A DNA stretch of 64,000 nt from Escherichia phage vB_EcoM_PHB13. The stretch is taken from the sequence record MK573636; one strand, written 5' to 3'. Made by a program: the position numbers and the translations under genes. Each line of letters begins with the position of its first letter. Position 1 is the first letter of the stretch. The notes below the pieces were generated by a model that had not been told where the DNA came from, did not search any database, and worked only from the letters and a program-made list of their open reading frames with translations. Of this stretch, positions 12,783 through 21,882 are shown piece by piece.

Positions 12783-13251
12783 AATTGATATCTATGCGGG
12801 TGGACCTTATCCATCGGGTGAATTGAGTAATTTCAATAAAAGACCATTCCGTCTATTTGGTTGCGATATTAACAGCACAGAAGGATTTTTACAGGGGCTA
12901 AGATTTAAGAACCCTCAGAGACAAAGAGAAATCTTTTTGATGCATGGTGGCAAAGCAAAAAGAACCGGAAGAACTGAAAAGATTGAGAATCACATGTTAT
13001 ATTTTCAGGGTCGCCCGATTCATCGAATGAGTGAGCATTATTACAAACTGGTACATCTGGCATTTGTTACGATGGCACGGAATAACCCAGAATTTTGTAA
13101 AGCATTACTCTCGACCGGAAATAAGAAATTACGTCATAGTATAGGTGGAACTGATCCGTTAAAGACTATATTGACTGAATCGGAATTTTGTAGTATCCTC
13201 AATGATATTCGTGAACGTTTAACAAAACGAGGTGAAAATGTCAATTCTTAA
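12772..13251 (+). CDS. NADAR (YbiA/DUF1768)-like protein
   Basis: Motifs LSNFNKRPF, STEGFLQG, GKAKRTGR, LLSTGNKKLRHS match NADAR family signature from memory. Confidence 0.55.
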   Translation: MTSEIDIYAGGPYPSGELSNFNKRPFRLFGCDINSTEGFLQGLRFKNPQRQREIFLMHGGKAKRTGRTEKIENHMLYFQGRPIHRMSEHYYKLVHLAFVTMARNNPEFCKALLSTGNKKLRHSIGGTDPLKTILTESEFCSILNDIRERLTKRGENVNS

Positions 13252-14734
13252 TATCATTAATCAGCTTGCAGCAACAGACAAAACATCGCTGAAAGAAAAG
13301 ATCCTGAAAGAATCTGCAAGCAATGAAACGCTGAAAGAATGCTTTTATCTGGCATATTGCAAACAGGTTACGTTTGGCGTAAAGAAATACGATAAACCAT
13401 CGCGTTATTCGTCTGTATTGTCTTTATCCGGTGCATTACAGGTCTTTAAAAATAAACTTGCCACGCGTCAAGTAACTGGTAACGCAGCATTACAGCTAGT
13501 TACCGATACTCTGACTTGCTTGTCAGAAGATGATGCTAAAGTTGCAATGATGGTCCTGAATCGTGATCTGGAATGTGGTTGTTCCGCTACCACTGCAAAC
13601 AAGGTATGGAAGAAACTGATCCCCCAGCAACCGTGTCACCTTGCATCGTCATGTTCTGATAAGACTATTGCTAATATCAAGTATCCGGCGTATGCACAAC
13701 TTAAAAGCGATGGCGCTCGTGGTATGGCTGATATTGACGGGGAAACATTAGCAATCTATACCCGTTCAGGTAATACCTATCAGGGACTTGATGATTTGTT
13801 TGCGGTTTTAGAGCGTCTACGAGGCCGTGGAATTGTTCTAGATGGCGAATTGGTATATATGCCTACCCTTTCGCAAACACCAGCGCAGAACTTCGTTGAG
13901 AGCATTTATGATGGTACTCTGTCATGGATATTTGAAGAAGAGGAAATGCCATTAACGCCAGTAGCGGAAGCAGTAAAAGAATCCGTTGTTGCAGATCGTC
14001 AGACCGGAAATGGTATCCTCAACAAATCACTGAAAGGAACTATTCCAAAAGAAGAAGCCCAATGTATTGTTTACACTGTCTGGGATGTTATCGACCGTGA
14101 TGTGTATTACGGAAACGAGAAAGCAACGAAGCAATATAAAGATCGATTCGAAGAACTAAAACAGATTGTTGAAGAACTTAACGATCCTCGTGTTCAGATA
14201 ATCGAAAACACTGTAGTTAACAATATAGATGAAGCTCGCGAAGTATATCATCGCTATGTAAACATGGGCTTAGAAGGTATTATCCTTAAAAATTTACATG
14301 GTGTATTTGAAGATCGTCGCAGTAAAGATCAGGTTAAATTTAAAGAAGTGATTGACTTCGACGCGGAAATTGTTGATGTATATCCGCATAGTAAAGACCC
14401 TAATAAGGTAGGCGGTTTTACTGTCCGTAGTGCGTGCGGACGAATGATGACTAACACCGGATCGGGATTGACTGACACCACAACCGAAAAAGGTGATGAT
14501 GGTATTGAACGTGTAATTCCGTTCGATCGTCGAAATGAACTCGACCGAGAAATGTTATGGGCTGACCGTCATAACCTGATTGGAAAAGTCATTGAGATGA
14601 CATGCAACGGGTATATCCGCAGCAAATCACGTAAAGAAGATGAACCGGAGTTCTCTTTATTTCTCCCGATCATCAAACGTATTCGCTACGACAAGACCAC
14701 TGCAAATACAGTAAAAGAGGTATTCGATGTGTGA
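13232..14734 (+). CDS. gp30: ATP-dependent DNA ligase
   Basis: 500 aa; colinear with T4 gp30 incl. RDLECG and adenylylation motif KSDGARG. Confidence 0.9.
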   Translation: MKMSILNIINQLAATDKTSLKEKILKESASNETLKECFYLAYCKQVTFGVKKYDKPSRYSSVLSLSGALQVFKNKLATRQVTGNAALQLVTDTLTCLSEDDAKVAMMVLNRDLECGCSATTANKVWKKLIPQQPCHLASSCSDKTIANIKYPAYAQLKSDGARGMADIDGETLAIYTRSGNTYQGLDDLFAVLERLRGRGIVLDGELVYMPTLSQTPAQNFVESIYDGTLSWIFEEEEMPLTPVAEAVKESVVADRQTGNGILNKSLKGTIPKEEAQCIVYTVWDVIDRDVYYGNEKATKQYKDRFEELKQIVEELNDPRVQIIENTVVNNIDEAREVYHRYVNMGLEGIILKNLHGVFEDRRSKDQVKFKEVIDFDAEIVDVYPHSKDPNKVGGFTVRSACGRMMTNTGSGLTDTTTEKGDDGIERVIPFDRRNELDREMLWADRHNLIGKVIEMTCNGYIRSKSRKEDEPEFSLFLPIIKRIRYDKTTANTVKEVFDV

Positions 14735-15200
14735 TAATGAAGGGGCGAAAGCCCCTAAACCTAAAAAATTGTCAAAGAAAGAGCAACGCCAGATCCTGAA
14801 AATGAAATATGGTGGACGTTGTGCCTATTGTGGCGAGGAACTAGGGGATCGCTGGCACGCAGACCACATCAAACCAGTATTGCGACGCTCAAAGGTAGTC
14901 TATGATGAAAATGGACGAATTGCCCGTAATGATGATGGATCGTGGAAGTATAAGGTTGTAGGAATGCATAAACCGGAACATGATATACTTGATAACATGA
15001 ATCCGGCGTGTGTGCAATGCAATCTTTATAAAAGCTGTATGGGCTTAGAATACTGGCGTAAGTTTATACGCGAGAACTTCCAGAAGTACATTCAGCGAAA
15101 TATGGGGTTGCGAGCGGCTAAACGCTTTGGCTTGCTGTCAATTCATGACCAGCCAGTAGAATTTTATTTCGAAAAGTACGAGCGCGAAAATAAGGAGTAA
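14727..15200 (+). CDS. HNH endonuclease (zinc-finger type)
   Basis: CAYCGEE...HADHIKP...NPACVQCN HNH signature; hairpin GGGGCGAAAGCCCC sits in first codons so true start may be Met26 (14802). Confidence 0.6.
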   Translation: MCDNEGAKAPKPKKLSKKEQRQILKMKYGGRCAYCGEELGDRWHADHIKPVLRRSKVVYDENGRIARNDDGSWKYKVVGMHKPEHDILDNMNPACVQCNLYKSCMGLEYWRKFIRENFQKYIQRNMGLRAAKRFGLLSIHDQPVEFYFEKYERENKE

Positions 15201-15207
15201 CCATTAT

Positions 15208-15552
15208 ATGTTCTTTATGTTTATCTATATCCTTTTTGTTTTCCTGGTAGGCATGTACGCAAGCCGTTTAAACCGTAGCGTTATCGGTTATGTTCTCCTA
15301 TCTTTGATCATTAGCCCGTTGATCACCTTTATCATTTTGTTGGTGTTGGGTCCAACTAAATCATATGAACAGGAACAAGCAGACAAGCTAAAAGCAGAGA
15401 TGGTAGAGAAACAATTTGTTCAACTGTATCTAGAAAACCCAGAGTTTGAGGAAGTTTCCACCCTTAAGCGAATGTATGACGATCTAACACGATACCCTAA
15501 CTATCGAAATGTGCTGGCTATGGAAGAAGCCATTAAGCTCATGAAAAAATAA
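15208..15552 (+). CDS. small membrane protein (2 predicted TM helices)
   Basis: Hydrophobic segments FIYILFVFLVGMYA and VLLSLIISPLITFIILLVLG. Confidence 0.5.
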   Translation: MFFMFIYILFVFLVGMYASRLNRSVIGYVLLSLIISPLITFIILLVLGPTKSYEQEQADKLKAEMVEKQFVQLYLENPEFEEVSTLKRMYDDLTRYPNYRNVLAMEEAIKLMKK

Positions 15553-15565
15553 TTCAAAAAAGTTG

Positions 15566-15594
15566 TTGACAGGGGATCACGTATCCCCTATACT
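15566..15594 (+). promoter_or_regulatory. PeSL early promoter TTGACA-GGGGATCACGTATCCCC-TATACT
   Basis: 17-nt spacer is a perfect palindrome. Confidence 0.65.
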
Positions 15595-15637
15595 ACACAC
15601 ATCAAAACGAAACACACTTTCTTAAGGAGAATCAAAA

Positions 15638-15949
15638 ATGAAATACATCGTAACGCTGCCAATGATTGACTTCGACGGAACCATGAACACCCAGAAGACC
15701 ATGAGCGCGGAGAACCAACTGAAAAACGCTACCCTGATTCGTGAAGTTCGCAAGGCACTGGCAAAAGAATTTAACACCAAAATTCATTCTGTAACTGGCG
15801 AACGTTTCGCGGATCATCTTGATATCAATATCAAACCAGTGCGCAACGGTGTTATCTCTGTAACAACCAACCGCCCACATGCTGACGCTGATAATCTGAC
15901 CGCTCGCGCAGAAGATGTAATTATGACCGTTATCATGGAAAAACTTTAA
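15638..15949 (+). CDS. hypothetical early protein (103 aa)
   Basis: ORF with PeSL SD AAGGAGAATCAAAAATG. Confidence 0.55.
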   Translation: MKYIVTLPMIDFDGTMNTQKTMSAENQLKNATLIREVRKALAKEFNTKIHSVTGERFADHLDINIKPVRNGVISVTTNRPHADADNLTARAEDVIMTVIMEKL

Positions 15950-15958
15950 AAAAAGTTG

Positions 15959-15988
15959 TTGACAGGGGAGGTTAAACTCCCCTATAAT
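15959..15988 (+). promoter_or_regulatory. PeSL early promoter TTGACA-N18-TATAAT (GGGGAG/CTCCCC stem)
   Basis: Direct reading. Confidence 0.65.
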
Positions 15989-16022
15989 ACACACATACCG
16001 AAACGAACTAGGAGAATCAATT

Positions 16023-16202
16023 ATGAACTTCAACGAAATCATCGCTAAAATCCGCTACAACGAAGAAACCATTGAACTGATGCAAAACAATATCACCAAT
16101 GGATATATGATTGCAGCGTCACAAGAAATCATTGATTTGACGGTAGCAGAAAATGCTCAGTTGAAACATCAACTTTCAACGGCTGGCGTGATTGTTATGT
16201 AA
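16023..16202 (+). CDS. small hypothetical protein (59 aa)
   Basis: ORF below track cutoff after PeSL SD. Confidence 0.4.
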   Translation: MNFNEIIAKIRYNEETIELMQNNITNGYMIAASQEIIDLTVAENAQLKHQLSTAGVIVM

Positions 16203-16219
16203 TAAAGAGAGGTGACTAA

Positions 16220-16522
16220 ATGGCAAAAGTTCAGGTAGGTGAGGTCTTCAAAATGGAAGACCATACCGTGGAAGAGATGAAAGGCGCAGTATTGAAAGTA
16301 ATTAATTCAATGTGGCGTAGTGTGCTTTACATCAACTTTATCGACGGTGATGTGTGGTGGGCTAGCGATAGCGATAAATGGGATATCAAGTTCTACAAAG
16401 GTCATACTCACTGGTTAGGATCAGAGGATGTTGTAGAAGTTCTGGCGGTTGATGTTATGCCAGGAGAGATCGAGAATCTTAGCGGAACAGCAAAAGAAGC
16501 ATTGACACGCCATTTTGCGTAA
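16220..16522 (+). CDS. HxHW/VLAVDV paralog family member A
   Basis: GHTHW then VLAVDV; SD AGAGAGGTGA. Confidence 0.55.
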   Translation: MAKVQVGEVFKMEDHTVEEMKGAVLKVINSMWRSVLYINFIDGDVWWASDSDKWDIKFYKGHTHWLGSEDVVEVLAVDVMPGEIENLSGTAKEALTRHFA

Positions 16523-16578
16523 TGTAGTATAACAATAATCGGGAGGGTAATACTCTCCCACAAATTGAGGATAATATT

Positions 16579-16770
16579 ATGTGTGGTCTTAAAATGGTTG
16601 CTGAATATAAGCGAACTGGTAATGTTATGATGTATCGACGCAATGCCAACGAAGAATGGAAACCTTCAAACCGCATTAAATCCATCCAGACGTTTATGAA
16701 TAACATCAAAGAAAACCTTTTCGTTAAGCGTGCTGGTGCTGGACATTGGGAAGTTTACGAAGCTGTATAA
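16579..16770 (+). CDS. hypothetical early protein (63 aa)
   Basis: ORF with SD GAGGATAA. Confidence 0.45.
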   Translation: MCGLKMVAEYKRTGNVMMYRRNANEEWKPSNRIKSIQTFMNNIKENLFVKRAGAGHWEVYEAV

Positions 16771-16786
16771 TTTTGAGGAAAATATT

Positions 16787-17095
16787 ATGGAACAAACTAA
16801 GCTATTTGTCGCGGAACCTTTTGTAAGAGACAATAAAAATCTGGCTAAAACAATCATTTTGTATTCGGATTGGATCTTTTATATCGATGGTAATTTAGAC
16901 GTATATTGTCGCACAGCTCCAACTGATTCGTTTTATATCGAAGAAAACGACACTCATAATCATTGGTATGATGGAAACGACAAAACCGAACTAGCTGTTG
17001 TCCTAGCGTCAGACGTAGAACCTGAAAACGCGGACAAAGTAGCAGACAAATTTATGAAGTACGCATATAAAGATAAAAATGAAGATGAAGAATAA
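16787..17095 (+). CDS. HxHW/VLAVDV paralog family member B
   Basis: THNHW then VVLASDV; start moved from track 16730 to Met after SD GAGGAA. Confidence 0.5.
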   Translation: MEQTKLFVAEPFVRDNKNLAKTIILYSDWIFYIDGNLDVYCRTAPTDSFYIEENDTHNHWYDGNDKTELAVVLASDVEPENADKVADKFMKYAYKDKNEDEE

Positions 17096-17102
17096 AAAGT
17101 TG

Positions 17103-17131
17103 TTGACAGGGGATCACCGATCCCCTATAAT
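17103..17131 (+). promoter_or_regulatory. PeSL early promoter TTGACA-GGGGATCACCGATCCCC-TATAAT
   Basis: Perfect palindromic spacer. Confidence 0.65.
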
Positions 17132-17165
17132 ACACACATACCAACGAGATATAGGAGAATCAAAA

Positions 17166-17333
17166 ATGTTCCAGACTAAAGCAGAATGCGAAGCATACAT
17201 TGTAGCAAACCACGGTGAAGACTACCTGAAATTCGATATCGTAGTAGCACAGAAGATCACCGGAATGGTTGCAAAATATCTGGGTGTTAAAGAAGGTTAC
17301 TATCCTAGCAACGCACCAGAAATTAACAAATAA
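17166..17333 (+). CDS. small protein (55 aa), duplicate copy 1 (MFQTKAECEAY...)
   Basis: Track start 17079 spans the promoter and is rejected; paralog of 20424-20591. Confidence 0.5.
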   Translation: MFQTKAECEAYIVANHGEDYLKFDIVVAQKITGMVAKYLGVKEGYYPSNAPEINK

Positions 17334-17336
17334 TAG

Positions 17337-17365
17337 TTGACAATGATTAAAGGGAGTAGTAAGAT
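17337..17365 (+). promoter_or_regulatory. PeSL early promoter TTGACA-N17-TAAGAT (GGGAGTA/TACTCCC stem)
   Basis: Direct reading. Confidence 0.6.
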
Positions 17366-17397
17366 ACTCCCATCAAGACAACAAACGGAGAATCAAA

Positions 17398-17577
17398 ATG
17401 AAAGCTATCGAAGTTCAGAAGTACATGGAAATCATCGTTGAAAGTAAAGCACATTTAGTGTTGACTACTCACGTAGGATATGATAAAAATGTGCATATGC
17501 TGGTAGACAACATCGGCTGGATGAAGTTTAATCCTAACGAGAACGTACAAGCTCAAGAAATGACCATCCCTTTCTAA
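17398..17577 (+). CDS. small hypothetical protein (59 aa)
   Basis: ORF below track cutoff after PeSL SD. Confidence 0.4.
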   Translation: MKAIEVQKYMEIIVESKAHLVLTTHVGYDKNVHMLVDNIGWMKFNPNENVQAQEMTIPF

Positions 17578-17589
17578 GAGGAATATATT

Positions 17590-17868
17590 ATGATGCGAAT
17601 TACTGCAACGCTGGATAAGACACACAAAGAAAGATTTTTCGGTATGATCTTAAAAACGCCGATTTTCGATAATTACCTTTATGTTGACTATAACGGTCAC
17701 ATTAGCTATAAATGTAAAAATGATATTCGTGATTCCTTTGGTGATAAATCACAAGCCGATATTCACGATCATTGGTGGAACCATGACGAACCTTTACGGG
17801 TTATCGCAGTTGATGTAAAAACAACAAAAGAAGCTGATAAGGTAGTGAATGATTATGAGCAAATTTAA
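17590..17868 (+). CDS. HxHW/VLAVDV paralog family member C
   Basis: IHDHWW then VIAVDV. Confidence 0.5.
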   Translation: MMRITATLDKTHKERFFGMILKTPIFDNYLYVDYNGHISYKCKNDIRDSFGDKSQADIHDHWWNHDEPLRVIAVDVKTTKEADKVVNDYEQI

Positions 17869-18064
17869 AGATTATAAAGCATATCAACAGATCTTGCGAG
17901 TATACGAACCAGAGTTCGCCGAAAAGATGATGGAAGATGCATCAAAATGCCCGTCCTTTTCTGGAAACAAAAACCATTATTCTACTGGTATTGTATCATG
18001 GAAAGAAACCGCATATACTCAACAATGGATAGATGTGTTTTCAAAAACTCTTGATTGGTGTTAA
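17849..18064 (+). CDS. small protein, MSKFKDY tandem paralog 1
   Basis: N-terminus MSKFKDYKAY; MMEDA motif shared with next ORF. Confidence 0.45.
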   Translation: MIMSKFKDYKAYQQILRVYEPEFAEKMMEDASKCPSFSGNKNHYSTGIVSWKETAYTQQWIDVFSKTLDWC

Positions 18065-18282
18065 TTATGAGTAAATTTAAAGATTATCGAGCATATAAAG
18101 CGATCTGCGATATATTCGATGAAAAGACCGCTCATGCAATGATGGAAGATGCAGAACAATATGAATCATTCGTCAATTCCAAAGATTGCACAGTAAACGA
18201 GGTTGTGTGCTGGAAAGATACAAAGTATGAAGAAAAATGGATTACTGTGTATTACGGAGAACTAGAATATGAAATTAACTAA
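18055..18282 (+). CDS. small protein, MSKFKDY tandem paralog 2
   Basis: N-terminus MSKFKDYRAY; MMEDAEQ; start possibly at internal Met 18067. Confidence 0.45.
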   Translation: MVLIMSKFKDYRAYKAICDIFDEKTAHAMMEDAEQYESFVNSKDCTVNEVVCWKDTKYEEKWITVYYGELEYEIN

Positions 18283-18589
18283 AAAGATTTTCCCAGAATT
18301 GCGTAACTGTCTGTTACTGGTTACTGAATATAAACCTTATACGATCTACTTGTATGTTGATGAAAATCTGAAAATCCGTTACTATGATTATACGTCTCCA
18401 GTAATGAGATCATTTGCTCACGCGATAGCAAACAATTGTATGAATCATAATCATTGGGTAAGTGATAATGATCATGATGCGTCAGAAGTTGTAGTGATCG
18501 CATGGAATCTATCACCAGCGGAAGCAGATCAAGCACGCATTAAGCATTATGCGAAAAACAATTGGTTTGACCTTATAAGTGAGGACTAA
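18269..18589 (+). CDS. HxHW/VLAVDV paralog family member D
   Basis: NHNHW then VVVIAWNL. Confidence 0.5.
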   Translation: MKLTKKIFPELRNCLLLVTEYKPYTIYLYVDENLKIRYYDYTSPVMRSFAHAIANNCMNHNHWVSDNDHDASEVVVIAWNLSPAEADQARIKHYAKNNWFDLISED

Positions 18590-18593
18590 TATT

Positions 18594-18872
18594 ATGTTCA
18601 AAGTAGGTGATAAGTTTATTCTTAGTCGTGATATTCTCCCTAATCTGAAAGGTTGTATCATCAATCCTAGTAAAAATTCATGGTTTTATCTGTTTATCGA
18701 CGACAAACTGAATGTACGCGCCGAATATAAAGAAGGTCTTCGTACTGGTCTAGGTTTCTTTCACGATCATGATCATAGCCATTGGCTAAACGGTGGATTC
18801 GAAGCAACGGTGCTAGCGGTTGATGTGACTTACACGAACATCATAGAAAAATATCAAAAAATTATTTTATAA
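18594..18872 (+). CDS. HxHW/VLAVDV paralog family member E
   Basis: HDHDHSHW then VLAVDV; start placed at ATG after SD GAGGACT. Confidence 0.5.
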   Translation: MFKVGDKFILSRDILPNLKGCIINPSKNSWFYLFIDDKLNVRAEYKEGLRTGLGFFHDHDHSHWLNGGFEATVLAVDVTYTNIIEKYQKIIL

Positions 18873-18878
18873 AAAGTG

Positions 18879-18907
18879 TTGACATAAGATCGGGTGTATA
18901 GCATAAT
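18879..18907 (+). promoter_or_regulatory. PeSL early promoter TTGACA-N17-CATAAT (GGGTGTAT/ATACACCC stem)
   Basis: Direct reading. Confidence 0.6.
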
Positions 18908-18953
18908 ACACCCATCGAAACGAGATACACTTTCTAACTAGGAGAATCAAATT

Positions 18954-19241
18954 ATGGCATACATCACTATCACTCTGAAAGTTAACAAATTTGCTCACGC
19001 TGCACACGAAACCGATAATGCAATCCGTAACAACAAGTTTGCACGTCTGGTACGCGATGCAGTAGCTAAAGAGTTCAACTTCAAATTTGCAGATGGTAAA
19101 GTTATCACTAAATGGACTCATGACGGCGAAACTAAAGTAGAACTTGCTGACAACTTCGCAAATCAGGAATATGCACACCGCCGCATCAATGAAATCATCA
19201 GCGATGAACTCTACTACGGAGTACAGGAAGGTTTGTTTTAA
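18954..19241 (+). CDS. hypothetical early protein (95 aa)
   Basis: ORF after PeSL SD; weak AKEFN similarity to 15638 ORF. Confidence 0.5.
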   Translation: MAYITITLKVNKFAHAAHETDNAIRNNKFARLVRDAVAKEFNFKFADGKVITKWTHDGETKVELADNFANQEYAHRRINEIISDELYYGVQEGLF

Positions 19242-19246
19242 TATAG

Positions 19247-19268
19247 GGGGCGTTAAGCCCCTTTTAAT
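19247..19268 (+). terminator. rho-independent terminator (GGGGC-GTTAA-GCCCC + TTTT)
   Basis: Read directly. Confidence 0.65.
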
Positions 19269-19290
19269 CTATCTGAATGAGGATATCACT

Positions 19291-19599
19291 ATGAAAAATC
19301 TTGTAGTTGAATTTACCCGCGAGAATTTACCACAATTTCGCAATTCTCTGCTTAAACTAGAGAACAGTAATTATGATGTATATTTTTACATCACCGAAGA
19401 TCTAGAGATCCTTTACGCTGATTACCCAGGTCCGATCCGTACCTTCGAAACCGCATCAAAATATAAAAATGTGCACGGTCATGAGCACTGGTTACGAGAA
19501 AACCCAGGTCGCAAGAAAGCACGCGTTAAAGTGTTGGCGATTGACATAACACCAGCATACGCCGACCGGATTGCACAGAATGATTATTTGTCTAAATGA
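19291..19599 (+). CDS. HxHW/VLAVDV paralog family member F
   Basis: HGHEHW then VLAIDI; start moved from track 19144 to Met after terminator and SD GAGGATA. Confidence 0.5.
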   Translation: MKNLVVEFTRENLPQFRNSLLKLENSNYDVYFYITEDLEILYADYPGPIRTFETASKYKNVHGHEHWLRENPGRKKARVKVLAIDITPAYADRIAQNDYLSK

Positions 19600-19606
19600 T
19601 TTCATT

Positions 19607-19633
19607 AGCCGACCTTAGTGTCGGCTTTTTTAT
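19607..19633 (+). terminator. rho-independent terminator (AGCCGAC-loop-GTCGGCT + T6)
   Basis: Read directly. Confidence 0.75.
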
Positions 19634-19657
19634 TGCATAAAATTTAAAAAAAAGGCA

Positions 19658-19686
19658 TTGACACCAGATCACGCCTATAGCATAAT
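19658..19686 (+). promoter_or_regulatory. PeSL early promoter TTGACA-N17-CATAAT
   Basis: Direct reading. Confidence 0.6.
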
Positions 19687-19726
19687 ACACCCATCGAAAC
19701 GAGATACCACTTAGGAGAATCAAACA

Positions 19727-19996
19727 ATGGCGCTGACTAAAACCACTACCAACTTTGCAAAACGTCACGGCTTCGACCTTGAAATCAATAGCTTTAACGA
19801 TTACACCCTTCTGTGTGTATATGAAATCGAAAATGATTGCGAGTGGATGTTCAGCTATCGCGTAAACGAAGACGGATCTTTCACTTGGAACGGAAATATC
19901 TATCTTGCACAGGAAGTAAAAGAAGAACTTCCGGCGACTATCAAAGATGAGAAACATTTACGTCAAGTTTTAAAATTTATTTCTGAAAATATCTAA
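19727..19996 (+). CDS. hypothetical early protein (89 aa)
   Basis: ORF after PeSL SD. Confidence 0.5.
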   Translation: MALTKTTTNFAKRHGFDLEINSFNDYTLLCVYEIENDCEWMFSYRVNEDGSFTWNGNIYLAQEVKEELPATIKDEKHLRQVLKFISENI

Positions 19997-20003
19997 AAAG
20001 TTG

Positions 20004-20032
20004 TTGACACCAAAGTAAGAACATAGCATAAT
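20004..20032 (+). promoter_or_regulatory. PeSL early promoter TTGACA-N17-CATAAT
   Basis: Direct reading. Confidence 0.6.
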
Positions 20033-20065
20033 ACACCCATACCGAAACGAACTGGAGAATCAAAA

Positions 20066-20347
20066 ATGAAATTCATCAAAGCAACCGAAATCCTGAAAAA
20101 CAAAGAAGCATACATCGGAAACATCGTTGGTATGAACATTCGCGGCGCTGGTAGCCAGTGGACCAAACTGGTTGATGTTAAAGCTAAAGGCGATAAAATT
20201 GAGTTCACTGTAAAAATGCTTACTCATAACGCACATATGGGTATCAAGACAAAAACGATGGCAGCAGATAAAAGCATCAACTATCAGGATCTGGGTGATT
20301 GGCTGAACTGGTGCAAAATGCACAACATCGAAACTAATCACGAATAA
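20066..20347 (+). CDS. hypothetical early protein (93 aa)
   Basis: ORF after PeSL SD. Confidence 0.5.
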   Translation: MKFIKATEILKNKEAYIGNIVGMNIRGAGSQWTKLVDVKAKGDKIEFTVKMLTHNAHMGIKTKTMAADKSINYQDLGDWLNWCKMHNIETNHE

Positions 20348-20361
20348 TTTTAAAAAAGTTG

Positions 20362-20390
20362 TTGACGGGGATCGGGAGATCCCCTATAAT
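20362..20390 (+). promoter_or_regulatory. PeSL early promoter TTGACG-GGGATCGGGAGATCCCC-TATAAT
   Basis: Direct reading. Confidence 0.65.
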
Positions 20391-20423
20391 ACACACATAC
20401 CGAAACGAAATAGGAGAATCAAA

Positions 20424-20591
20424 ATGTTCGAGACTAAAGCAGCATGTGAAGCATATATCATTGAAACCCACGGCGAAGATTATCTGAAATTTGACATTGT
20501 AGTAGCACAGAAGATTGTAGGGATGGTTGCGAAATACCTCGGAGTTAAAGAAGGTTACTATCCAAGCAACGCACCGGAAATTAACAAATAA
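20424..20591 (+). CDS. small protein (55 aa), duplicate copy 2 (MFETKAACEAY...)
   Basis: ~85% nt identity by eye to 17166-17333; identical C-terminus GVKEGYYPSNAPEINK. Confidence 0.5.
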   Translation: MFETKAACEAYIIETHGEDYLKFDIVVAQKIVGMVAKYLGVKEGYYPSNAPEINK

Positions 20592-20606
20592 TTTTTATAA
20601 AAAGTG

Positions 20607-20635
20607 TTGACAGGGGAGACACCCTCCCCTATAAT
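20607..20635 (+). promoter_or_regulatory. PeSL early promoter TTGACA-GGGGAGACACCCTCCCC-TATAAT driving the 20676-22731 operon
   Basis: Direct reading. Confidence 0.65.
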
Positions 20636-20675
20636 ACAACCATCAAGACGAGATACCACTTAGGAGAATCAAACA

Positions 20676-20927
20676 ATGGCTAACATCGAAACCGCAAAGA
20701 AAATCGCTAAAGACCTGAACGTTAAAGGCTTCCGTAAACTGAAATTACAGCGTGTACGCTACACCATCGGCAAACAGTGCTCTTTCATGAGCGAAGAAGT
20801 TGCTAACAGCCTCATTGATAACCTGATTGCGGCTGGCTGGGAAGTTGCGGATCTGAAAACTTGCCGCGAACTGGCTAACAAAGGTCTTTTAGATTCTGTT
20901 ACTATAAAACCAATGGGGGCAGCGTGA
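20676..20927 (+). CDS. hypothetical protein (83 aa), first gene of operon
   Basis: ORF after PeSL SD; stop overlaps next start. Confidence 0.5.
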   Translation: MANIETAKKIAKDLNVKGFRKLKLQRVRYTIGKQCSFMSEEVANSLIDNLIAAGWEVADLKTCRELANKGLLDSVTIKPMGAA

Positions 20928-21169
20928 AAAGAAAATTAATTAAACGAAATAAGGAATTTTTGAATAACTGCATTAAGGTTGCTAATGGTTGGCCTTTGTT
21001 CCTCTTCCTTTATGATTGGTATTCTAAACAATCGGTAGAGGAAACACGACACTATAAGAAGATCAGAAAAGAATCATATACAAAACAAGGCCGCATTAAC
21101 GGACTTTACTTAATGTGGCACGGCAAAGAACCTTCTAAAATCTGTGTTGGATTAAAGGGGCGTATATGA
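20924..21169 (+). CDS. hypothetical basic protein (81 aa)
   Basis: ATGA-coupled to neighbours. Confidence 0.45.
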   Translation: MKRKLIKRNKEFLNNCIKVANGWPLFLFLYDWYSKQSVEETRHYKKIRKESYTKQGRINGLYLMWHGKEPSKICVGLKGRI

Positions 21170-21882
21170 AACAAAAATTAATATTCTGCAACTTTGACGG
21201 ATCGGGGATAATGGGGCTAGAATGGGCTAAAGCAGGTCATAAGGTGATCTGCTTTAATGCAGATGATGCCGACCACGGCACATACAAAAAGTATAATACC
21301 CGATTTGAACATCCAAACATTACATATGTAAACACATGGATTGATTTGGATTGGCTGGAAAGAGCAATGGACCTTGAATGGGGAAAACCAGATATTATCT
21401 TTGCATTCCCACCGTGCACCAATTTAGCTGTTAGTGGCGCTGCACACTTTGAACGAAAGAAACGAGAACAAGGACCATTAATTCAAGTTCATGATGTAAG
21501 GGCAGCTAAAATAACCGCTTATTTGGGCGAATGGTTAGAAGTTCCCTACATGATAGAGAATCCTGTAAGCGTTATCTCTAGCATGTGGCGTAAGCCTGAT
21601 TACATGTTCCACCCGTGGGAATATGGCGGTTATTTGCCGGAATATGATATACATCCTACGTTTCCTGAGTATATTGCCTCCCGTGATATGTACCCGAAAA
21701 AGACTTGCTTATGGACGGGACAAGGTTTTATAATGCCAGAAAAGAAACCTATACCGATTAATAAAGGGTACAGTAAACAGCATTCTAAGCTAGGCGGGAA
21801 AGGAACCAGAACAAAGACTATCAGGTCACTTACCCCGCGAGGATTCGCAAAGGCAGTATTTGAAGCCAATAAGGATCTATGA
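21166..21882 (+). CDS. compact C5-cytosine methyltransferase-fold protein (variant motifs PCT / ENP)
   Basis: Motif I FDGSGIMG, motif IV FPPCTNLAVSG, motif VI ENPVSV, motif IX RSLTPRGFAKAV; only 238 aa. Confidence 0.55.
   Translation: MKQKLIFCNFDGSGIMGLEWAKAGHKVICFNADDADHGTYKKYNTRFEHPNITYVNTWIDLDWLERAMDLEWGKPDIIFAFPPCTNLAVSGAAHFERKKREQGPLIQVHDVRAAKITAYLGEWLEVPYMIENPVSVISSMWRKPDYMFHPWEYGGYLPEYDIHPTFPEYIASRDMYPKKTCLWTGQGFIMPEKKPIPINKGYSKQHSKLGGKGTRTKTIRSLTPRGFAKAVFEANKDL

Follow-up and report, generated by a model that had tools for sequence, protein, structure and literature searches.

We analysed a 64,000-nucleotide stretch of one strand of Escherichia phage vB_EcoM_PHB13 (sequence record MK573636; hereafter, the window), in which an initial annotation had described a family of six paralogous genes, m1 to m6, carrying a histidine-rich HxHW motif. 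All six open reading frames (ORFs) are present on the + strand with the starts proposed for them, and each has a Shine-Dalgarno sequence (GAGG or GGAG) 6–10 nt 5' of its ATG. The first gene, m1 (16220-16522; 100 amino acids; net charge -7), is the ortholog of RB49p208 of phage RB49, belongs to PHROG 16486 and has its HTHW codons at 16403-16414. It is followed by m2 (16787-17095; 102 amino acids; net charge -12; HNHW codons at 16955-16966), which occupies the position of RB49p206 but is a different allele, with 73% amino acid identity to the RB49 protein. The third gene, m3 (17590-17868; 92 amino acids; HDHW codons at 17764-17775), is the ortholog of RB49p203 and belongs to PHROG 15972. Next come m4 (18269-18589; 106 amino acids; HNHW codons at 18446-18457), the ortholog of RB49p200 in PHROG 9345, and m5 (18594-18872; 92 amino acids; HSHW codons at 18774-18785), the ortholog of RB49p199 in PHROG 17255, which starts 4 nt past the m4 stop. 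The last gene, m6 (19291-19599; 102 amino acids; HEHW codons at 19480-19491), is the ortholog of RB49p197 and, like m4, belongs to PHROG 9345. Each gene encodes a soluble protein of about 100 amino acids, and all six RB49 counterparts are annotated 'hypothetical protein'.

The proposal that the six genes form one paralogous family was borne out. Pairwise identity among the proteins is 17–36%, with m4 and m6 being the closest paralogs (36%). Hidden Markov models (HMMs) built from five members recovered the sixth at 24–49 bits, compared with a maximum of 8.6–15 bits for shuffled sequences; none of the 2000 shuffles made for each member reached the real score, and the similarity is thus well above chance. 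Among the 580 window ORFs of at least 40 amino acids, the left-out member was found with E=1.2e-6 to 2e-14, and no ORF outside the family fell below E 0.01. Translating the window in all six frames yields the pattern H.HW exactly six times, always inside m1 to m6, whereas shuffled windows contained 1.5 occurrences on average and never more than 4. The motifs quoted in the initial annotation are exact (KGHTHW, DTHNHW, DIHDHWW, MNHNHW, HDHSHW and HGHEHW in m1 to m6, respectively). The hydrophobic V-L-A-V-D-V stretch is present as the strands VLAVDV, VLASDV, VIAVDV, VIAWNL, VLAVDV and VLAIDI, lying 8–13 residues after the Trp. The Y-x-D segment is shared only in part: four of six copies have [YF]-x-D, while m1 has YIN and m6 has YIT. 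In the wider family, 88% of sequences have Asp at this position. The His codons of the motif differ among copies (CAT or CAC), indicating that the constraint acts on the protein and ruling out a DNA or RNA element.

Existing protein clusters capture this relationship only in part. PHROG 9345 matches m4 and m6 over their full length (E=1.8e-51 and 2.5e-48), gives weak matches to m2 (2.2e-6), m5 (7.2e-5) and m3 (2.4e-3), and does not reach m1. Together with PHROGs 16486, 15965, 15972 and 17255 it is annotated as 'unknown function'. Thus, the family is spread over five PHROGs clusters, whereas the leave-one-out profiles join all six copies. We conclude that the six ORFs are genuine coding genes and belong to a single, ancient family of paralogs.

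We next consider the conserved residues and the predicted structure. AlphaFold2 models made with family alignments gave the same topology for m6 (mean predicted local distance difference test score, pLDDT, 81.9; predicted template modelling score, pTM, 0.78) and m2 (80.5 and 0.75, respectively). In both, the predicted fold is alpha/beta: beta1 and a short helix precede a beta2-beta3-beta4 meander, and HxHW, with a variable segment on either side, separates this meander from beta5 and the final helix at the C-terminus; the predicted meander has four strands. In m6 numbering, family-wide conservation is complete for H66 and W67 (100% each) and high for Y33 (92%), H64 (92%) and D35 (88%), followed by V86 (79%), A91 (75%), I34 (71%) and F52 (71%). 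Hence the His/Trp cluster noted at the outset is conserved, with an added Tyr/Asp pair, and residues of this type hint at a ligand or metal site. The most variable, gap-rich segments, residues 43-63 and 68-78, flank the motif, and substitutions and in-frame insertions within ortholog groups concentrate in the same two loops. The motif flanks are enriched in Gly, Asn, Asp and His. Net charge varies from -12 (m2) to +1 (m6), and the isoelectric point from 4.4 to 7.9.

Comparison with known families and folds identified no relative of established function. Scans of the six proteins against Pfam, NCBIfam and PADLOC, and a Pfam scan of 24 family members, gave no consistent match; isolated matches fell below cut-off (PROCT, E=0.0017; T4_Y03C, E=0.1). 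The curated defence families of PADLOC gave 0 matches at E<=1, and NCBIfam only two, both to m6 and far under the curated cut-offs. A profile search of PDB sequences found nothing below E=0.99, and a structure search of BFVD returned family members only. The nearest solved structures are YopQ (8brf), the Tas1 immunity protein (6ox6_B) and GIY-YIG domains (3mx4, 2wsh, 1ln0 and 1ycz), which share a small alpha/beta architecture with a beta hairpin or meander packed by helices; 54–71 residues superpose at 2.8–3.6 Å. The predicted fold has no recognisable solved relative. In profile comparisons with hhalign, we detected no homolog of the family among 14 small ORFs of the T4 alt-to-cd region (maximum probability 0.9%) or among 15 other hyperplastic-region ORFs of the window (maximum probability 2.6%).

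Several named families were considered and rejected, since the six proteins lack the residues that define them and the structural scores do not reach significance. These are the GIY-YIG nucleases (GIY and YIG motifs about 10–11 residues apart, an invariant Arg in helix 1, an invariant Glu metal ligand, PF01541); the HIT (histidine triad) proteins (H-phi-H-phi-H-phi-phi with hydrophobic phi, HIT fold); HxH sites of the metallo-beta-lactamase, cupin or amidohydrolase type (a complete ligand set such as HxHxDH, and the fold); the 2H-phosphoesterases; and the Tad2 anti-Thoeris sponge (a match to Pfam DUF2829, Tad2 fold).

The six genes lie in a phage of a well-defined group. Positions 15000-21000 of the window align over their full length, at 94–96% identity (megablast), with 28 complete Krischvirus genomes, which are RB49-like T4-type myoviruses of 163–176 kb with E. 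coli and Shigella hosts. The source genome is a T4-type Krischvirus (RB49-like) of about 164 kb, which contradicts the earlier description of a small phage genome. All six genes sit within the hyperplastic interval bounded by gene 30, encoding DNA ligase (13232-14734), and alt. This interval holds alt.1 alone (62 amino acids) in T4 and about 25 small ORFs in RB49-type phages, and the T4 interval contains no homolog of the six-gene family. By contrast, the complete RB49 genome holds exactly six members, all within the 30-alt interval (six-frame HMM scan).

The family has a narrow distribution. A word-seeded profile search of 5.8 billion proteins yielded 85 matches of roughly 80–130 amino acids, unnamed or 'hypothetical'; where these lie on long contigs, the contigs are 164–176 kb. 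An exhaustive HMMER search of 1.84 billion cluster representatives gave only 21 clusters at E<=1e-3. In a tblastn search of 50,697 phage records, matches were confined to Krischvirus (55–56 records), and the family was absent from the other T4-like genera in that collection. A related-locus search with protein P0092 gave no match in viral_contigs. Two uncultured contigs extend the range. L003, a 20-kb T4-like contig, has two m2-type members inside the same 30-alt interval, and L008 (Logan SRR8048117), a 2.1-kb contig, has five family domains over four adjacent ORFs: an m1-type, P0086, an m3-type and an m4-type. P0086 (L008 823-1434) is a 203-amino acid tandem fusion of an m5-like and an m2-like domain with HNHW in each; this natural fusion suggests that family domains may work as dimers. 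We conclude that the family is specific to one clade of T4-type phages, namely Krischvirus and a few uncultured relatives.

The location of the genes in an early region, as proposed in the initial annotation, agrees with the promoters found there. The region carries ten copies (at 15558, 15951, 17095, 17329, 18871, 19650, 19996, 20354, 20599 and 22731) of a PeSL of about 58 nt, consisting of an AT-rich tract, AAAAAGTTGTTGACA, a GC-rich stem-loop and TATAAT, with TTGACA as the -35 element. PeSLs are promoter/terminator cassettes described for RB49 and phi1 (PMC2839356). Four + strand copies bear directly on the family, with their -35/-10 promoter sequences placed at 15959, 17103, 17337 and 18879. 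The early promoter at 15951-16008 (TTGACA, 18 nt, TATAAT, with a GGGGAG...CTCCCC stem-loop in the spacer) heads the 16023-ORF, m1, the 16579-ORF and m2. Directly 3' of the m2 stop lies another PeSL (17095-17152; stem-loop and TTGACA/TATAAT), the counterpart of RB49 PeSL206/205, for which lacZ fusions demonstrated promoter activity; terminator activity has been measured for the RB49 PeSL211/210 stem-loop (Arbiol et al., PMC2839356). A PeSL-like early promoter at 17329-17386 (TTGACA, 17 nt, TAAGAT; stem GGGAGTA/TACTCCC) heads the 17398-ORF, m3, the 17855-ORF, the 18067-ORF, m4 and m5. The fourth (18871-18928; TTGACA, 17 nt, CATAAT) lies directly 3' of the m5 stop and heads the 18954-ORF and m6, and a hairpin followed by a T run, resembling an intrinsic terminator, is found on the + strand directly 3' of the m6 stop (19607-19626). 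The six genes are therefore arranged in three + strand transcription units (m1 and m2; m3, m4 and m5; m6), each headed by a PeSL, with the association holding per unit and not per gene. The PeSL promoters have consensus sigma-70 elements, and no T4-type late promoter TATAAATA occurs between 12.2 and 32.6 kb. Early expression of the six genes is well supported by inference from these promoter sequences.

Unrelated ORFs of 59 amino acids (16023-16202 and 17398-17577) sit directly before m1 and m3. In the distant contig L008, too, their orthologs lie ahead of family members; these ORFs may encode functionally coupled partners.

The same interval has been studied in the same phage group as the site of PeSL-associated ORFans of RB49 and phi1 (RB49 ORFs 197-208; Arbiol et al. 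2010, PMC2839356; Comeau et al. 2014, PMC4122927). As in those studies, the window has small genes behind sigma-70 promoter/stem-loop cassettes, and these show insertion, deletion and replacement polymorphism between close relatives. By contrast, most of m1 to m6 are not single-gene cassettes, being arranged in three shared units with stable number and order. We found no mention of the family in the text of the 2010 paper (PMC2839356), and nothing on the family in literature on the HxHW motif, Krischvirus anti-defence or RB49 ORFan toxicity. The family is 'hypothetical' in every record inspected and, as far as we found, has not been described as a family.

We compared variation across eight sampled Krischvirus genomes. 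All eight carry the six members in the same order, with frameshifted copies in two. A frameshift splits m6 in kvi (L013 5121-5578) and JSE (L016 4374-4762), and m2 is N-terminally disrupted in JSE (L016 6734-7000); either these members are dispensable or the records contain sequencing errors. JSE and the metagenomic contig L005 have two m4-like paralogs where m4 and m5 stand in the window, such that a different paralog occupies the m5 slot. Two allele classes exist at the m2 locus: 18 records are more than 90% identical to the window allele and 36 records, RB49 (73%) among them, are 60–80% identical. Genes flanking m2 are 95–100% identical among Krischvirus genomes, indicating that m2 alleles have been replaced by recombination.

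An 88-amino acid ORF that is absent from the window lies just upstream of m1 in JSE (L016 7612-7878, minus strand) and L005 (5581-5847). Although this ORF is collinear with the family, NGHL stands where the others have HxHW (hhalign probability 13%; BFVD Foldseek match to C4MZ33, E=5.7e-3); most probably it represents a seventh member that has degenerated.

The initial annotation took the six-fold expansion to imply diversifying selection. Our data do not support this. The ratio of nonsynonymous to synonymous substitution rates (dN/dS) between orthologs is 0.00–0.28 for every member (Nei-Gojobori), and when codons were split into loops versus the rest, the two variable loops alone gave values in the same range. 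For m2 and m4, dN is higher, and dS much higher, in the loops than elsewhere in the gene; since both rates are raised, the loop variation points to mosaic exchange of divergent alleles rather than to positive selection. Moreover, subfamilies of the m1-, m2-, m3- and m4/m6-type occur in the divergent uncultured T4-like contigs L003 and L008, indicating that at least four subfamilies predate the Krischvirus radiation. The duplications are therefore old, and recent diversifying selection lacks support. Overall, the sequence comparisons indicate old, evidently sub-functionalised paralogs of stable copy number, with purifying selection on every copy.

With regard to function, the reading that we tentatively favour, and would not yet call probable, is that m1 to m6 are accessory proteins of the early phase that bind different, most likely host, targets and have a His-based metal or ligand site in common. 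The six proteins would be dispensable accessories made in the first minutes of infection. Each copy would use the same small putative site, made up of the invariant His-Trp pair, the nearly invariant first His of the motif and the Tyr/Asp located where strand 3 ends; coordination of a divalent metal, or of a small ligand, is its most plausible task. Targets would differ among copies because of the two loops, which are hypervariable and prone to indels, and of a surface specific to each paralog (net charge -12 to +1). The most likely role would be to bind, and then neutralise or re-task, different host or host-defence components, in takeover or anti-defence. Accessory status is suggested by the lack of a homolog in the T4 interval, the broken m6 and m2 copies, the replaced m5 slot and the dimorphism of m2. 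Krischvirus phages lack hydroxymethylcytosine genes (PMC12115623), and asiA, motA and alc are not listed in the RB49 annotation; a takeover or anti-defence role fits a phage that has no cytosine hypermodification and no annotated asiA, motA or alc.

Unexplained early genes abound in T4-type hyperplastic regions; of the few whose role has been characterised, some act in takeover or anti-defence. Among such T4-type proteins, AsiA, Arn, Dmd and IPI* are cytoplasmic, early and non-essential, have about 60–110 amino acids and are encoded in variable regions. The six-gene family resembles them in size and variable-region location and, as predicted, in being cytoplasmic, early and non-essential, but we detected no sequence or structural similarity to any of these four proteins, and to our knowledge none of them forms a six-copy family. 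A bolder version of the favoured reading, which we consider unlikely, is that the proteins represent a new small fold with a new His-x-His-Trp metal or ligand site, a modular scaffold of cytosine-unmodified T4-type phages whose six sub-functionalised copies, perhaps acting as homo- or heterodimers, would each inactivate a separate defence or housekeeping target of E. coli.

Several observations weigh against a role as host-directed binding proteins with a shared site. The functional role is drawn from context only, and the Pfam, NCBIfam, PADLOC, PDB and BFVD searches found no sequence or fold homology to characterised anti-defence or host-takeover proteins. The HxHW stretch is the lowest-confidence part of the m6 and m2 models (pLDDT 62–71). 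No complete metal-ligand set is invariant: the first His of HxHW is Ser or Asp in three sequences, m6 has Thr and m1 has Asn in place of D35, and Asn or Gly often replaces the Asp of VxDV. The fusion P0086, with its hint of dimers, is known from one 2.1-kb contig alone. Genes in an arms race would not usually be expected to show low dN/dS, ancient paralogs and a stable copy number. Lastly, the Tyr/Asp/His/His/Trp constellation would fit an enzyme active site equally well. In line with this last point, the proteins could be small metal-dependent enzymes (hydrolases, nucleases or phosphoesterases) with His-x-His and Asp as the catalytic metal site, conceivably degenerate relatives of the GIY-YIG type; GIY-YIG-type alpha/beta domains are common in T4-like phages. 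We regard this as quite improbable. It is similarly improbable that they are small-molecule sponges, in which the putative His/His/Trp/Tyr/Asp pocket would be formed by oligomers and bind nucleotide-derived immune signals or another metabolite, with paralogs differing in ligand.

The stable copy number and strong purifying selection would suit housekeeping-like roles better than arms-race roles. Together with the early sigma-70 promoters and the absence of asiA, motA and alc from the RB49 annotation, this is consistent with phage-internal regulators, in which the paralogs would bind host RNA polymerase or phage replication or transcription components, time the early programme and replace functions of the AsiA/MotA/Alc type. 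However, single members are frameshifted or replaced in the viable phages kvi and JSE, other T4-like genera in the phage collection lack the family, and no similarity was found to known RNA-polymerase-binding phage proteins, such that we consider regulators doubtful. The broken copies, the position of the genes among PeSL repeats, and the ORFan-carrying PeSL mini-circles shown in RB49 (PMC2839356) would also be expected if the genes were cargo of mobile PeSL cassettes with little or no phage function, persisting because PeSL-mediated recombination spreads them, and with HxHW merely stabilising the fold. This is highly improbable given dN/dS of 0.00–0.28 in every member and across old paralogs, the conservation of order and number across the eight genomes, the retention of subfamilies in distant phages and the lack of individual PeSL flanks for most members.

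Through this analysis, six anonymous 'hypothetical proteins' of RB49-type phages from five PHROGs clusters become one defined family with a diagnostic motif, a confident predicted model, a mapped conserved site with variable loops, and an evolutionary picture. H64, H66, W67 and the loops are specific targets for experimenters. Krischvirus phages are used in phage therapy and their DNA is unmodified, so that knowledge of their early accessory genes has practical value. Multi-copy ORFans are expected in T4-type hyperplastic regions, and for this reason we regard the family as a solid, moderately interesting lead rather than a surprise. The finding is well supported as a lead, but is not yet a discovery.

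The surrounding region has other features of note. Upstream of the six genes, an HNH endonuclease ORF (14727-15200) shares 8 nt with the end of the ligase gene. Downstream of them, the same hyperplastic region holds a gene for a C5-cytosine DNA methyltransferase (21166-21882); alt also lies on the downstream side. The endonuclease ORF and the methyltransferase are both consistent with phage DNA having unmodified cytosine. Between m3 and m4, the ORFs at 17855-18064 and 18067-18282 (69 and 71 amino acids, both beginning MSKFKDY) form a second tandem paralog pair with 41% identity. In all, 10 of the 22 ORFs analysed in the 15.2–22.2 kb stretch fall in three paralog families. A PeSL-plus-ORF cassette is duplicated at 17083-17334 and 20342-20592 (172 nt, 85% identity), with products of 55–56 amino acids (17163-17333 and 20424-20591) that are 89% identical; this duplication is likely the product of PeSL-mediated recombination.

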